Origin: a virus
DNA: 64,000 nucleotides
Direction: 5' to 3' (one strand)
Virus record (IMG/VR): IMGVR_UViG_3300023174_005350
Coordinates: 11,006-75,005 of that record
The position numbers and the translations under genes were made by a program. The notes under the pieces are model-generated. The model was not told where the DNA came from. It was given only the letters and a program-made list of their open reading frames with translations, and searched no databases. Of the stretch, positions 4,256 through 11,583 are shown piece after piece. Each line of letters begins with the position of its first letter. Positions within the stretch are counted from its first letter, which is position 1.

Positions 4256-4628
4256 AATAAAACAATATAAAGATAATACATGTAAAGATTATTCTATCTC
4301 TAAATTATTAAGAGAGCAAAAAAAAAGTAATGATCTTTTTGAAACAATGCTTTGTAATATAAGTCTTGAAGATATAATAGCATTAAGACTAGAGTTGGCT
4401 TATAAATCAATTGGCGTAAGATTATATGGCTTTCCAATATGGAGAAGCACTAATTATATTGTTCAAGAAGCTTTATTAAAGTATGCAGTATCTATAAGTA
4501 CTTCTAAAGGTGAAGCGGCTAGATATCTTGGATTAAATGTTGATAAATTTATTAAATTTCTAAAAAAATATAAAATAGATACTTATTTTAAGAGGAAAGT
4601 AAATGCTGATCACCGAAACACAACTTAA
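4227..4628 (+). CDS. Protein with C-terminal Fis-type helix-turn-helix
   Basis: EALLKYA...SKGEAARYLGLNVDKFIKFLKKYKI resembles the Fis/NtrC HTH. Confidence 0.55.
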   Translation: MTVLKTHLSKIKQYKDNTCKDYSISKLLREQKKSNDLFETMLCNISLEDIIALRLELAYKSIGVRLYGFPIWRSTNYIVQEALLKYAVSISTSKGEAARYLGLNVDKFIKFLKKYKIDTYFKRKVNADHRNTT

Positions 4629-5178
4629 AAAGATTTATCCTAATATAAAAAAAGATAAACTAGAATTATATGTTAAAGCTTTTAATAATGTTTTTCCTTC
4701 CTATGGCATCAATACCTCTAGACGGATTGCTGCTTTTCTTGGACAAGTTGGGGTCGAAAGCGGAGAACTCAAATACGACAAAGAACTAGCATCAAAATAT
4801 AATAAAAAAGATCCTAGTAATCGATTTGAATCCGTTGGAACTTTATACGAAGGAAGAAAGAATTTAGGTAATACACAAGTTGGTGACGGTCCTAAATTTA
4901 TTGGTCGTGGCATTCTCCAATTAACTGGAAGAGCTAACTATGAAAGCATGTCTAAAATACTAGGAATTGATTTAGTTAATAATCCTGAATTAGCATGTGA
5001 TCCAGAAATAAGTACTAAAATTGCTTGTGAATATTTTAAAAAACGTGGATTATTAGAATTAGCTGACGAATGGAATCTTGATGAAATTACTCGTAGAGTT
5101 AATGGTAATGCAAAATTACATCACGATATAAGAGTTAAATATAGTGAGGCTGCTTTGAAAGTTTTAGATATTAAATAG
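4603..5178 (+). CDS. Glycoside hydrolase family 19 endolysin
   Basis: RIAAFLGQVGVESG, NLGNTQVGDGPKFIGRGILQLTGRANY, ITRRVNG motifs; GAGG RBS. Confidence 0.92.
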   Translation: MLITETQLKKIYPNIKKDKLELYVKAFNNVFPSYGINTSRRIAAFLGQVGVESGELKYDKELASKYNKKDPSNRFESVGTLYEGRKNLGNTQVGDGPKFIGRGILQLTGRANYESMSKILGIDLVNNPELACDPEISTKIACEYFKKRGLLELADEWNLDEITRRVNGNAKLHHDIRVKYSEAALKVLDIK

Positions 5179-5492
5179 TTAATATTAGGTAGTTGGCTTA
5201 AAAGTAGCAATCTTTAATGAGTGAGACAAAATCCTTGGCTAGTAGATATATGTCCGTTAACAGCGGGGAGTTAAGTGTAGTTTGCCCGAAGAAAGCGCAA
5301 CAAAACCCGAAGATAGTTGCGTAGACAACAAGCTGATAGGTAAGCTCCAATATATCATAAATCTTGGGGGTTGGGTAATAGGAAAGTCAGATTCGTTTGA
5401 TGGGACAGAAATAAACTTAAGATATAATCATTGAAAAGATTGTATTGTTTACTTCCTCCCTCTCTTTGGTGTAGTAACACGCCTAATATTGA
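5179..5492 (+). ncRNA. Structured ncRNA resembling the 23S rRNA H43-H44 GTPase-associated centre, with a large internal insertion
   Basis: ORF-free and GC-richer than flanks; closing stem AATATTAGG(5181-5189)/CCTAATATT(5482-5490); 5' AGGTAGTTGGCTTAAAAGTAGCAATCTTTAA resembles H43; 3' GTGTAGTAAC resembles H44; several internal hairpins. Confidence 0.75.
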
Positions 5493-5507
5493 TGTTGTTA
5501 AAAAAAT

Positions 5508-5777
5508 ATGAAAAAAATTAAAATTGGCAAATGGAATTATAGAGTTTTTAAAACTATTAAATCTAATGGCTTAGAAGAATATGGAATAGTCGAAGTATAT
5601 TATGATACTAAAGACAATCCAGCCAGTTATACTGATTATCAGATTCCTTGGGGAGAATCTTTAAAAGATTTGAAATGGGAACTTTCTTCTATGTTAAAAT
5701 CCTGTAGACAAGATGTATTAACAGAAGAAGATTTTAAACCGAGAAAAAAGAATGCAAGAAAAAAAATGGAAAGATGA
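5508..5777 (+). CDS. Hypothetical phage protein (WNYRV...YGIVEVYY type)
   Basis: 89-aa ORF in operon context. Confidence 0.65.
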   Translation: MKKIKIGKWNYRVFKTIKSNGLEEYGIVEVYYDTKDNPASYTDYQIPWGESLKDLKWELSSMLKSCRQDVLTEEDFKPRKKNARKKMER

Positions 5778-5973
5778 AAAAATCTTCTCTTGTTTTGAAG
5801 AAGCAGAACAATATAAAAATACCTTACAAAACTCCCCAGAAGGTGCTACAATGGAGTATAAAATAAAACACAAAGATGGCGTTTTTATTATTAGAAGCAG
5901 AATACATCCAGAACTTATAGAAGCTGTTAAAGAAATAGATGAAAAGCTTTCAAAAAAGAAAGGTAAAATATGA
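5752..5973 (+). CDS. Hypothetical protein
   Basis: Overlaps both neighbours, ATGA coupling to the next gene. Confidence 0.6.
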   Translation: MQEKKWKDEKIFSCFEEAEQYKNTLQNSPEGATMEYKIKHKDGVFIIRSRIHPELIEAVKEIDEKLSKKKGKI

Positions 5974-6587
5974 GATTCATTAAACGATTAGAGGAAGCAG
6001 TAGAGCAAGAAACAAAAAAGCGTAAGACTAGTGAACGCGATGATCGTGATCTTGACGTTGAAGTAGATGATAACCATATTTATTTTTATACTGATGTAAC
6101 TAAAGAAAGCGTTCTTAATCTAAATAAAAATTTAGCTAAAATCGAAACAGATATGATGCATACTGGAAATGTTTTAGGTATTCCAACACCAGAAATTAAA
6201 TTACATATCAATAGTCCCGGTGGTAGCTTGTTCGACGGATTAGCAGCAGTAGATTATGTTCGTAGAAGCCGCGCACCAGTTCATTCTGTCATTGAAGGAA
6301 TGGCAGCTTCTGCGGCAACACTTATATCAGTTATGGCTCATAAGCGCTCTATTAATAAACATTCATACATGTTGATTCATCAGCTTTCTTCTGGTGCTAT
6401 TGGAAAGTTTGAAGAACTAATGGACGATATGGAAAATAATAAAGCTTTGATGAAAGCTATAAAGCAAATTTATCTGGAGCGCACAAAGATTCCAGAAAAC
6501 TTGTTGAAAGATATCCTTAAAAAAGATATCTATTTTGACGCAAAGCAGTGCCTGAAGTATGGTTTAGTAGATCAAATTCTAGAATAA
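5970..6587 (+). CDS. clpP: ClpP-like (S14) protease subunit
   Basis: LHINSPGGS, GMAASAAT (catalytic Ser), MLIHQ (His), AKQCLKYGLVDQI. Confidence 0.88.
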   Translation: MRFIKRLEEAVEQETKKRKTSERDDRDLDVEVDDNHIYFYTDVTKESVLNLNKNLAKIETDMMHTGNVLGIPTPEIKLHINSPGGSLFDGLAAVDYVRRSRAPVHSVIEGMAASAATLISVMAHKRSINKHSYMLIHQLSSGAIGKFEELMDDMENNKALMKAIKQIYLERTKIPENLLKDILKKDIYFDAKQCLKYGLVDQILE

Positions 6588-6979: not shown

Positions 6980-7501
6980 TTATTGTTTCCATCTACCATC
7001 TTTGTTTAAGAAGTGGTTTTCCATATGACAAGTAGGACATAATACTTCTAAATTTTCTATAGTATTATTTTCTCTGTTTCTATCTTTATGATGAACTTCT
7101 AATACTTCTGGTATTTTAGAATAATCGCATTTTTCACATTTTACTGCTTTACTTCTAAAAGCTACATCTCTGTATGCCCTGCCAGCGTTTGTATAATGCG
7201 GCGGTTGAATTTCTTTTATTCCACCAATTCTTTGAGCGATATCTTTGTGTTCCCTACAGCAAAAATATAAACCGCTTCTTGATATTTTCTTTTTTGATGG
7301 TGCTTTGTAAAACATCTTCTTACAGTAAGCACATTCAACGTTTGGTTGATTAATTAAAGCAAATTTTTCTATTTTTTGTTTTTTTATAGCTTCATATGTA
7401 CATTTTTTGGTACAATACTTCCCGTTGCCTCTATTTACTTCTGATGAACGTGCTTGAAATTCTTTGTTACAGTTTAAGCATATTTTTAAATATGTAGTCA
7501 T
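6980..7501 (-). CDS. Free-standing HNH homing endonuclease with N-terminal Cys zinc-finger repeats
   Basis: CxxC repeats; CEKC...LEVHHKDRNRENNTIENLEVLCPTCHMENH. Confidence 0.9.
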   Translation of the reverse strand: MTTYLKICLNCNKEFQARSSEVNRGNGKYCTKKCTYEAIKKQKIEKFALINQPNVECAYCKKMFYKAPSKKKISRSGLYFCCREHKDIAQRIGGIKEIQPPHYTNAGRAYRDVAFRSKAVKCEKCDYSKIPEVLEVHHKDRNRENNTIENLEVLCPTCHMENHFLNKDGRWKQ

Positions 7502-7512
7502 ATATATCCTTT

Positions 7513-7584
7513 GGGCTGATAGTTAAATTGGTATAACATTTCCCTTGCACGGAAAAATCTGGAGTTCGACTCTCCATCGGTCCA
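7513..7584 (+). tRNA. tRNA-Ala (anticodon UGC)
   Basis: Acceptor GGGCTGA/TCGGTCC with the G3:U70 Ala determinant; anticodon arm TTTCC-CT-TGC-AC-GGAAA; T loop TTCGACT; CCA not encoded. Confidence 0.93.
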
Positions 7585-7588
7585 CTTA

Positions 7589-9634: not shown

Positions 9635-10225
9635 ATGCAAACCACCACCACTACCAACGAAACACTTAATACTCCTGATACTCGTAATATTGTTGATAAA
9701 TATAAATTCGATAGGCTTACTAAATGGACTACAGAATTGATTAAAAAAGACCTTCAACAAAAGTCTTTTCCATTTGCAGTTATGATGGAAAATCTTGTTG
9801 GTGATTTTAATTTGTCTTCTGTTCTGCGTTCTTGTAATGCAATGAATGGTCGTGAAATGTTCTATCTTGGTCGTAAACAATACGATAGACGTGGAACCGT
9901 TGGGACTCATCACTATACCGATATAATCAATCTAAAGGACCGCGAGGAGCTTCTAAAGTTAAAGGAGCGTTATACTTTTGTTGCACTTGAGAACAGTGTC
10001 CCACAGGCAGAAAGTATTTACGATTTCCAATGGCCTGAGAATCCTCTTATTATCATCGGGGAAGAAGGTGTTGGAATTACTCAAGAGACTCTTGCATTGT
10101 GTGATAGATTTGTTTATATCAATCAATATGGTAGCGTAAGAAGCATGAATGCAGCAGTAGCTGGAAGTATTGCTATGAATGATTTTGTAATGAAATATGT
10201 AAAAAATAACAACAACATGCGTTAG
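9635..10225 (+). CDS. SpoU/TrmH-family (SPOUT) RNA 2'-O-methyltransferase
   Basis: ENLVGDFNLSSVLRS, IIIGEEGVGI, YINQYGSVRSMNAAVAGSI (SPOUT motifs 1-3). Confidence 0.9.
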   Translation: MQTTTTTNETLNTPDTRNIVDKYKFDRLTKWTTELIKKDLQQKSFPFAVMMENLVGDFNLSSVLRSCNAMNGREMFYLGRKQYDRRGTVGTHHYTDIINLKDREELLKLKERYTFVALENSVPQAESIYDFQWPENPLIIIGEEGVGITQETLALCDRFVYINQYGSVRSMNAAVAGSIAMNDFVMKYVKNNNNMR

Positions 10226-10269: not shown

Positions 10270-11583
10270 ATGTCTAAAAAATATTACGTGTTGGACACAA
10301 ACGTATATCTAAGCGATTGTGACGCAGTATTCGCGTATAAGAATAATAACGTAGCAATTCCATTAAAAGTATTAGAGGAAGTTGATAAACATAAAAAGCG
10401 TCAAGATGGTGTTGGAGCTAATGCAAGACAGTTTATTCGTACTCTTGATGAATTACGTGAAAAAGGTAGCCTTGACGAAGGTGCAAAGCTCGGCAAAGGA
10501 AAAGGAACCATCTCAGTAATTCCTTGTGACTTATCTCTATTACCAACTGGTTTCGAAAGGGATAATGCTGACAATCAAATTATTGCCGCCACTTTAACAC
10601 TTATAAAAGAATTAGGCGATAACAAAAATGTATTCTTAGTATCTCAAGATATTAATATGAGAGTTAAGTGCGACTCTCTTGGTATCAATACCGCTGATTA
10701 TATTCCAAATCAAATCGTAGAACGAGCAGAAGAAGTATTTACTGGCTTTACACAATACCTTGTAGATGATGCTTTTATTGATCGTTTCTATGCTGGCGAA
10801 AAGATTTTATTAGAAGAAAAAGATATTAAGCTCCATCCTAATCAATTCTTGATGCTTGTATCTAATGCTAACGATAAAAAAACAGCACTAGCTAGATTTA
10901 GAGCATATAACTTACCTCTTACTAAAGTAAAAGAATATAAAAATGGTATTTGGGGTATACATGCAAAGAACAAAGAGCAACAGTTTGCTCTAGAGTTGTT
11001 GATGGACCCAGAAGTTAAGATTGTTTCTATTATTGGTCGTGCTGGTGGCGGTAAAACTCTTAACGCATTGGCGGCTGGCCTTCAGCAAATCCTTGATGAT
11101 AAGGTTTATAAAAAGCTAATCGTATCACGCCCAGTTCAACCAATGGGTAAAGATATTGGTTATTTGCCGGGAACACTAGAAGAAAAAATGTCACCTTGGT
11201 TAGCACCTGTTCAAGACAACCTTGAATTCTTAATGGGCGATGATAAAGCGCATCTACAGATGTTGATGGAAGCTGGAACAATTGAAATGGAAGCATTGAC
11301 TTATATTCGCGGTCGTTCTATTGCTAATGCGTTCATTATTATTGATGAAAGCCAAAACTTAACATCTCACGAATTAAAAACTATAATTACTCGCGTAGGT
11401 GAAGGTACAAAAATTGTATTAACTGGAGATATTGAGCAAATCGATAATGCATACGTAGACGCTACAACAAATGGTCTTACATATGCTGTAGAAAAATTAA
11501 AACCATTTGAAATCTCTGGTCATATAACATTAAAGAAAGGTGAGCGCTCTGCTGTTGCAAGTTTGGCAGCTCAAGTATTATAA
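10270..11583 (+). CDS. phoH: PIN-PhoH (PhoH2/YlaK-type) ATPase
   Basis: N-terminal PIN (YVLDTNV, ADNQII, VSQDINMRVK); GRAGGGKT, IGYLPGTLEEK, YIRGRS, IIDESQN, TGDIEQID. Confidence 0.93.
   Translation: MSKKYYVLDTNVYLSDCDAVFAYKNNNVAIPLKVLEEVDKHKKRQDGVGANARQFIRTLDELREKGSLDEGAKLGKGKGTISVIPCDLSLLPTGFERDNADNQIIAATLTLIKELGDNKNVFLVSQDINMRVKCDSLGINTADYIPNQIVERAEEVFTGFTQYLVDDAFIDRFYAGEKILLEEKDIKLHPNQFLMLVSNANDKKTALARFRAYNLPLTKVKEYKNGIWGIHAKNKEQQFALELLMDPEVKIVSIIGRAGGGKTLNALAAGLQQILDDKVYKKLIVSRPVQPMGKDIGYLPGTLEEKMSPWLAPVQDNLEFLMGDDKAHLQMLMEAGTIEMEALTYIRGRSIANAFIIIDESQNLTSHELKTIITRVGEGTKIVLTGDIEQIDNAYVDATTNGLTYAVEKLKPFEISGHITLKKGERSAVASLAAQVL

Follow-up and report, generated by a model that had tools for sequence, protein, structure and literature searches.

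The GTPase-associated centre (GAC) of 23S ribosomal RNA (rRNA) includes helices H43 and H44, and its isolated 58-nt domain binds thiostrepton and, in vitro, the C-terminal domain of ribosomal protein uL11. The 1051-1108 fragment is reportedly bound by L11, as Conn and Wimberly are said to have described in 1999, and Munishkin and Wool are said to have found in 1997 that oligonucleotides modelled on the thiostrepton and sarcin-ricin domains are bound by EF-G. Viruses carry tRNAs, transfer-messenger RNA (tmRNA) and a few ribosomal proteins. No report of a viral copy of an rRNA functional centre was found in the literature. The toxin Tre23 targets the H44 loop of the GAC, and thiopeptides bind H43/H44 (PMC8661411). 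The element described here, a non-coding RNA of about 316 nt at positions 5178-5493 (+) of a 64,000-nt stretch of freshwater phage DNA, is, judged by its sequence, a stand-alone copy of the GAC. The stretch, called the window throughout, covers positions 11,006 to 75,005 of the IMG/VR virus record IMGVR_UViG_3300023174_005350, a 75-kb contig that is 41% complete.

Several described systems resemble the phage RNA in part. Ribosomal-protein leaders (L10_leader; the L1 site of the L11 operon) are likewise RNAs that imitate an rRNA protein-binding site off the ribosome, but they are cis-acting and cellular, lie upstream of ribosomal-protein genes and are partial mimics with little sequence identity, whereas the phage RNA reproduces an entire rRNA domain almost exactly, is found among tRNA genes and has no ribosomal-protein gene nearby. 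Phage tRNAs and tmRNA share its genomic niche and probably its processing, and the phage RNA, too, copies an RNA of host translation; a GAC copy, however, is a piece of rRNA unable to work alone as a part of the ribosome. Phage RNA decoys, such as the pseudo-ToxI of phage phiTE (PMC3475682) and anti-CRISPR RNA repeats, imitate a host RNA and capture its protein partner, which is the mechanism proposed below for the GAC copy. These decoys imitate antitoxin or CRISPR RNAs with known targets, whereas the GAC copy imitates rRNA. GOLLD and ROOL are also large, pseudoknotted, of unknown function and located near tRNAs, but they show no sequence or model match to the phage RNA and are without an rRNA-like module. 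The phage family is undescribed. An earlier note on this DNA, made from the letters alone, knew of no named family for the element; cmscan against Rfam 15 likewise gave no family for the window at gathering score, with only noise at E 10 or below in 5000-5700, and no paper describing the phage RNA family was found.

The two ends of the element copy 23S positions 1054-1104 (the top of H42, H43 and H44), as read from the E. coli sequence and the Rfam large-subunit (LSU) rRNA models. E. coli MG1655 rrlB reads GCCAGGAUGUUGGCUUAGAAGCAGCCAUCAUUUAAAGAAAGCGUAAUAGCUCACUGGU at 1051-1108. The E. coli stretch that the earlier note had quoted was exact against rrlB, with A1067, G1071, C1072, G1091, C1092, A1095, G1099 and C1100 as stated, and its alignment of the element with the GAC was borne out by model searches. 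When the 5' 69-75 nt of each of two divergent homologues were run through cmscan, an LSU rRNA model ranked first among 4227 Rfam families, with the alignment falling precisely on H42-H44 (bacterial LSU model, 13.9 bits, E 0.006; archaeal LSU model, 16.2 bits, E 0.002); these matches are local, and LSU rRNA RF02541 gave no match at its gathering threshold of 50 bits. A profile hidden Markov model (HMM) of the family had a single match in the 4-kb E. coli rrnB locus, at 23S 1053-1088 (E 8e-5), and these elements were the sole matches when the E. coli GAC was used as query against 723 kb of DNA.

The likeness to the E. coli GAC (1051-1108) is near-identity over 1054-1090 and 1091-1104. The helices, the nine- and six-base loops, U1060/A1088, the 1082-1086 turn and G1071 are common to both, and the phage RNA shares the covarying 1072:(1092-1099) base triple. 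It differs in being a free-standing gene with its own closing stem and not a part of a 2.9-kb rRNA, in reaching 13.9 bits where the gathering score is 50, in carrying a helix-closed insert between 1090 and 1091, in the replacement of U1101 by A and, in the clade of the window, in the absence of base 1081 with a shifted register of H42. The parts of the rRNA-like core are as follows.

5178-5493 (+): GAC-copy RNA element, about 316 nt, non-coding
5178-5189 (+): closing stem P1, 5' strand (top of H42); 5187-5189 correspond to 23S 1054-1056; pairs with 5482-5493
5190-5213 (+): H43 copy (23S 1057-1080/81), placed by alignment with E. coli 23S and with the Rfam LSU consensus
5198-5206 (+): nine-base loop of H43, UUAAAAGUA (E. 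coli UUAGAAGCA); A5200 equals A1067, G5204 equals G1071, U5205 replaces C1072
5214-5222 (+): UUAAU turn (1082-1086) and GAGU (1087-1090), the 5' strand of the H44 base; invariant block UUUAAWGAGU
5465-5468 (+): UUUG linker from helix Px of the insert to H44; UUUG or UUUA family-wide
5469-5481 (+): H44 copy, GUGUAGUAAC-ACG; G5469-C5478 equals 1091-1100, U5470-A5477 equals 1092-1099
5482-5493 (+): closing stem P1, 3' strand

The H43 copy has the lower pairs A5191-U5213 and G5192-C5212, an internal loop (U5193, U5194 / A5210, U5211) and an upper stem of 5195-5197 with 5207-5209; the equivalent of the 1064-1074 pair is C-G, A-U or U-G. The base of the H44 copy is formed by G5219-C5480 and U5222-A5479, its loop GUAGUA corresponds to 1093-1098 with A5473 as A1095, and A5479, C5480 and G5481 correspond to 1101-1103. 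A terminal stem of 9 bp had been reported in the earlier note; it was found to be longer, 12 bp, formed by 5178-5189 with 5482-5493. The description of the element as free of open reading frames (ORFs) held, in sequence and in coordinates, as the overlapping ORFs are mechanical only and at most 50 aa.

Homologues of the element, the subfamily of the window, were retrieved from related phage contigs fetched via the flanking endolysin and protease proteins, and then with nhmmer and by scanning contigs of viruses and metagenomes for a conserved motif. Fifteen distinct homologues of 271-361 nt were obtained, every one from freshwater phage contigs and with identical gene order. A structure of 56 pairs in 12 helices was scored on a MAFFT alignment (A2). 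In the proposed structure 88.8% of the cells were paired, as against 39-49% in controls in which the 3' partners were slid by 1-3 columns; 26 pairs were changed on both sides (6-13 in the controls), and the covariation score was 0.379 (about 0.1 in the controls), a value matched by none of 500 shuffles. The strand is the plus strand because many of the pairs are G-U. Window 5178-5493 (+) is thus a conserved, covarying structured RNA. Six of the 12 pairs of P1 showed changes on both sides among the 15 homologues. The equivalents of G1071 and 1072 are invariant in the subfamily. A5200 and A5473, the retained A1067 and A1095 of the earlier note, are both present, and the two positions are A in 14/15 and 13/15 members, respectively.

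The wider family was collected from IMG/VR with two exact scans for AAG(T or C)AGCCATC-N(0-1)-TTTAAWGA. Of 133 matches, 120 were loci with both halves of the GAC around an insert, seven had the 5' half only (end of the locus or a divergent 3' half), five were chance matches and one was a complete copy without an insert. The last of these (locus handle L217, positions 1613-1680), GGGAAGUAGGCUUAAAAGCAGCCAUCUUUUAAAGAACGCGUAAUAGCGCAC, lies in AT-rich phage DNA and represents the GAC copy in minimal, free-standing form. A search of metagenomes with the motif CTTTAAWGAGTGNNNCRAAATCC gave six new members besides chance matches. The same motif had chance matches only in genomes of 185,579 species, and the element motif in its context was absent from these cellular genomes; the exact H43 17-mer had only chance matches in IMG/VR, inside a coding gene. 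In GenBank phages there was no match to the element or to the surrounding 12 kb.

The insert point is identical in the 120 loci, between GAGU (1087-1090) and G1091. Base triple, loop and insert length were counted in 58 distinct members with an identified closing stem, in which the insert measures 79-359 nt. Inserts are unrelated between subfamilies and the core is constant. The family 3' consensus GYGUAAYARC-ACAC equals the 23S H44 hairpin GCGUAAUAGC, with the loop GUAACA in 27/58 and GUAAUA in 17/58 members. The 1087-1102 pair is G-C and the 1090-1101 pair U-A in 69/69 members. The window has the traits of the family: a covarying closing stem of its own that extends the top of H42; an H43 of the form GGC-YYRNAAGYR-GCC on a lower stem with the 1058-1080 pair, followed by UUUAAWGAGU (5190-5222, with G-A at 1062-1076 in the window); a helix-closed insert between the 1090 and 1091 equivalents, then UUUG; and an H44 of the form G-Y-GUAAYA-R-C followed by ACAC or ACACG, with 1072, 1092 and 1099 in a matched state. 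A variant of H43 one base shorter occurs in the clade of the window and in L133, L139, L143, L179, L209 and L211.

The change from U1058-A1080 to A5191-U5213, proposed earlier as compensatory, agrees with the four Watson-Crick forms that this pair takes across the family (U-A 22, G-C 18, A-U 11, C-G 2). The triple 1072:(1092-1099) is C:(C-G) in 31 members, U:(U-A) in 18 and U:(U-G) in seven; the mixed state C:(U-A) was observed twice and U:(C-G) never. The triple of the window, U5205:(U5470-A5477), is therefore of the U:(U-A) type, the second commonest state. Four clusters of similar inserts each hold both C and U states, so the switch was repeated and was not one inherited event. The earlier claim that the three positions change in concert stood for the 58 members of the wider family, in which covariation is strong; inside the 15-member subfamily it did not, the triple being invariant there save for U-G in L063. 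The closing stem covaries in the 15 subfamily homologues, and the triple in the wider family. The tertiary fold of the GAC is under selection in a family of at least 120 phage loci.

The subfamily alone left the register of H44 undecided between the hexaloop and an alternative in which the insert replaces the H44 loop and 5469-5480 form a GUGU-NNNN-ACAC tetraloop hairpin. The hexaloop register, with H44 at 5469-5478 as first proposed, is right because the family 3' consensus GYGUAAYARC is that of the rRNA H44 hairpin and because the triple covaries; the tetraloop register was excluded on the same grounds.

A sarcin-ricin loop (SRL) copy was observed in one lineage. A hairpin with UAGUACGAGAGGA, the same sequence as E. 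coli 23S 2653-2665, occurs in inserts of roughly 358 nt in L092:6903-7320, L093, L094, L097, L098, L102, L119, L124 and L136; L096 has a further copy with a different, compensated stem. RNAs of this lineage thus carry a GAC copy and an SRL copy together. The SRL copy of L092 was not reported by cmscan, for which it is too short, and was confirmed by direct comparison. No SRL-like string was found in the insert of the window, where the best match had 6/14 mismatches.

The insert of the window, whose role is specific to its subfamily, is a structured domain with the following parts.

5223-5468 (+): insert, 246 nt, which departs from H44 at the 1090/1091 equivalents; its internal helices covary
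5223-5226 with 5461-5464 (+): Px, the insert-closing helix, GAGA with UCUC
5233-5236 with 5367-5370 (+): P2
5245-5251 with 5350-5356 (+): P3, enclosing P3a, P4 and P5
5253-5267 (+): hairpin P3a, UCCGUUAACAGCGGG
5268-5270 with 5345-5347 (+): P4, GAG/CUC, ACG/CGU or GAGAA/UUCUC
5295-5322 (+): hairpin P5; 7/7 pairs change on both sides
5305-5310 (+): P5 loop ACCCGA, candidate pseudoknot partner of UUGGGU 5371-5376
5369-5385 (+): invariant block GGUUGGGKAAUNGGARA, comprising the P2 3' strand, the pseudoknot strand and a conserved unpaired run; invariant in alignments A1 and A2
5386-5401 (+): variable hairpin P6
5402-5459 (+): variable hairpin P7

Px was read as GAGA/UCUC, GAAA/UUUC, GAGC/GCUC and GCGG/CCGC, with changes on both sides in 3/4 pairs. 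An invariant joiner, CAAAAU (5227-5232), lies directly 5' of P2, which occurs as CCUU/AAGG, CCAA/UUGG, CCAC/GUGG and CCUAUG/CAUAGG. Variants of P3 were AUUGUA/UACAAU, UUGCAA/UUGCAA and GGCAAU/AUUGCC. The P5 loop probably pairs with the invariant UUGGGK as a pseudoknot: U5376-A5305 is U-A in eight sequences and becomes G-C in four in the alignment, with three of clade G read by eye, and the sisters L028 and L065 differ at this position. A second CCCGA motif (5285-5289) is an alternative partner, without covariation. P6 and P7 are shortened or absent in smaller homologues; in their region UCAG/CUGA changes to UCGG/CCGA, and the hairpin 5420-5448 has compensatory changes.

Known large RNAs and introns were searched for in the same region. 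No covariance model of group I or group II introns matched at E 10 or below in 5000-5700, and Q/R/S-like strings either belong to local covarying hairpins or lack conservation in smaller homologues; the group I P7-like string AAGAUAUAAUC is part of a local covarying hairpin. RNase P was rejected likewise, as no model matched and the strings AGGAAAGUC and ACAGAA are in local hairpins or not conserved in smaller homologues. GOLLD, ROOL, raiA, HEARO, OLE and other large RNAs of Rfam 15 gave no model match for the window. Among 12 family loci in tRNA or tmRNA islands, no Rfam family was named at the element. The insert string GGUUGGGUAA (window 5369-5378) is identical to E. coli 23S 707-716, probably by chance, seven motifs having been tested; no convincing 23S counterpart was found for the other insert motifs.

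The element fills the space between the stop codon of an endolysin gene and the next ORF, and its end lies 15 nt before start codon 5508. The genes considered here are listed below.

4603-5178: GH19 endolysin ORF, directly 5' of the RNA element (Pfam and PHROG matches)
5508-5777: small 89-aa ORF 3' of the element (phrog_21321, function unknown)
5752-5973: second small ORF
5970-6587: ClpP-type prohead protease
9635-10225: SpoU-family methyltransferase (Pfam PF00588, 85 bits)

The window, L015 and L018 have no RNA genes clustered at this place, and there the endolysin stop codon adjoins the element directly. Five relatives have the start of the element 1-3 nt past the tRNA-Gly(GCC) of a Thr-Ile-Leu-Gly cluster (L016:4324-4836, L017:3761-4267, L020:3769-4083, L031:4390-4879, which adds Pro and Val, and L072:7181-8504). 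Presence of the tRNA cluster between the endolysin and head genes varies among the relatives. Two further relatives have a phage tmRNA gene immediately before the element, and in a third the gap between the two is 60 nt; the tmRNA genes directly upstream are L022:3563-3908, L063:1163-1508 and L049:2311-2600, with the tags ANDNVELSDYALAA and VNDDVEFESYALAA. A tRNA or tmRNA was found within 600 nt in 66/101 distinct family loci. This context points to translation, and because so short a gap separates the element from tRNA-Gly or tmRNA in relatives, it is most likely a processed stable RNA. One 255-nt contig of a river metatranscriptome lies wholly inside the element (173 nt, four differences); as a single contig it is a weak hint that fits a stable RNA, and no proof of transcription. 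The same metatranscriptome gave nothing on the flanking genes save one 35-nt piece at 5772-5806. DNA sequencing runs yielded relatives and the source sample only. A scan for promoters and terminators found no terminator, and promoter-like sites were no commoner than in shuffled sequences. No common neighbour protein family was found, the best cluster occurring in 8/106 loci, and therefore any partner is probably a host protein. Genes for uL11, uL10, bL12 or an EF-Tu-type GTPase were absent from the 75-kb record, itself 41% complete.

The core probably imitates the ribosomal uL11/GTPase site away from the ribosome. The most likely mechanism, to which we give slightly better than an even chance, is off-ribosome imitation or decoy by a trans-acting stable RNA that presents a free-standing GAC copy. 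The RNA would arise from a transcript shared with its neighbours and be released from it as a discrete species, in relatives through the 3' processing of the preceding tRNA-Gly or tmRNA. It would then fold into the GAC tertiary structure and be bound by the recognisers of that fold, host uL11 before others. The RNA, or an RNA-uL11 particle, would imitate the stalk base off the ribosome and could capture or divert a docking factor: a translational GTPase, RelA, or a toxin or antibiotic aimed at the GAC. Together with the GAC, the SRL makes up the GTPase docking site, and the presence of an SRL copy favours imitation of a factor site over reuse of the GAC as a scaffold. A broader version, which we regard as doubtful, is that phages between 40 kb and 380 kb in size produce a factor-binding site that is portable and acts in trans, in which a stalk-base copy recruits host uL11 and, with the SRL copy in one lineage, binds GTPases, RelA or defence toxins off the ribosome, the 246-nt insert adding a second partner.

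Several observations weigh against imitation of the factor site. The A1067 equivalent is G in 16/58 family members (about 28%), and the factor-facing loops of the subfamily are relaxed, with variation at the equivalents of 1065-1070 and 1096-1098. The loss of the 1062-1076 pair, recorded as G/A in the earlier note, was found to be peculiar to the window (G5195/A5209), the other 14 homologues having G-C. In the clade of the window base 1081 is missing after C1079 and the 1057-1081 pair is lost, which leaves U5190 without a partner and shifts the register of H42 by one, so that G5189-C5482 of the closing stem is one step off the rRNA register; the rRNA form persists in clade G (L030, L079, L049). 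L017, L028 and L065 have a two-hairpin insertion of 29-36 nt in H43, between 1078 and 1079 (GNRA-capped hairpins, approximately L017:4300-4335, L028:4630-4672 and L065:1465-1500), at a site that we take to be the groove seating the uL11 C-terminal domain. The G at the A1067 equivalent, the H43 insertions and the lost 1057-1081 pair argue against a perfect functional copy. The window copy adjoins no tRNA, which leaves its processing without explanation, and titration of proteins as abundant as uL11, EF-G and EF-Tu would require very high levels of the RNA.

Some of these points would suit a different use of the fold, in which the rRNA-derived three-way junction is a rigid, self-folding scaffold and the function (ligand binding, catalysis or multimerisation) resides in the variable insert. 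The large, pseudoknotted insert of the subfamily with its invariant unpaired blocks (5227-5232 and 5377-5385), the variation of the factor-facing core loops in the subfamily and the occurrence of ornate RNAs such as GOLLD in the same tRNA islands are in line with such architectural reuse. It is nevertheless improbable: the core is constant while inserts, 0 to 359 nt long, show no relationship from one subfamily to another, a scaffold has no need for the rRNA loops GUAAYA and UUAGAAGYA that most members keep, and the SRL copy in one lineage points to imitation of the ribosome. A cis-acting leader of the downstream head-morphogenesis genes (ORF 5508-5777, ORF 5752-5973 and the protease 5970-6587), which might for example bind a ribosomal protein, is suggested by the 15-nt distance to start codon 5508 and by the same small-ORF/protease module downstream in 15/15 homologues. 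It is a good deal less probable than a scaffold, since the 89-aa gene is missing in clade G, the wider family lies among tRNA genes with no common downstream gene, and the element in relatives abuts tRNA-Gly or tmRNA like another RNA gene. Moreover, no ribosomal-protein gene lies downstream, the ribosomal-protein leader models of Rfam (L10_leader and others) gave no match at E 10 or below, and the 75-kb record has no L10, L11 or L12 gene.

The phage SpoU 2'-O-methyltransferase (9635-10225) could use the RNA as substrate or guide, by analogy to Tsr, which methylates A1067. Its domain was confirmed, and the gene lies about 4 kb from the element in 6/6 subfamily contigs tested, but it was found in just 2/44 other contigs with the RNA family, among them 1/17 near-complete ones. 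The link is accordingly one of lineage synteny and not family-wide; SpoU was excluded as a family-wide partner, and a role as substrate or guide is very improbable. An origin as rRNA debris without function, or as what is left of a mobile intron captured with stubs of rRNA exons, would account for a high 23S identity broken by an insert at a single site. This is the least probable origin of all: compensatory changes in core and insert across the 15 plus 120 loci mark selection on the fold, no group I or II intron model matched at E 10 or below, and the element motif in context is absent from the 185,579 species of cellular genomes. The earlier note had argued for selection on the three-dimensional fold and against debris, and the compensatory changes together with the covarying triple of the wider family speak for the same view. 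Its structural reading of a stand-alone RNA that mimics the GAC gains support from the element's own closing stem, the LSU match and the family covariation. For function, the note had suggested that the RNA could titrate uL11/uL10, translational GTPases or RelA, or serve as a decoy for toxins or thiopeptides; these roles are hypothetical. The portable binding site in trans, if true, would place the family in a new class of viral RNAs, which use rRNA imitation to manipulate translation or to shield it. A widespread, selected GAC-copy RNA suggests an unrecognised way to disturb or protect host translation. For work on RNA folding, the family supplies natural variants of a classic model that bear insertions, A1067G and switched triples, and it gives a testable handle on off-ribosome binders of the stalk base.

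Some minor observations were made on the neighbourhood of the elements. The 89-aa ORF (phrog_21321) has tandem duplicates in several relatives (L015:3903-4461; L016:5158-5755) and is missing in clade G. A GOLLD RNA (L109:1359-1772, 237 bits) and a GAC-copy RNA (L109:7192) occupy separate places in one island of about 35 tRNAs; a tmRNA lies at L113:9765-10142. An HNH endonuclease gene at window 6980-7501 (-) abuts tRNA-Ala(UGC) 7513-7585, and its homologue L030:5351-5905 adjoins a tRNA-Gly.

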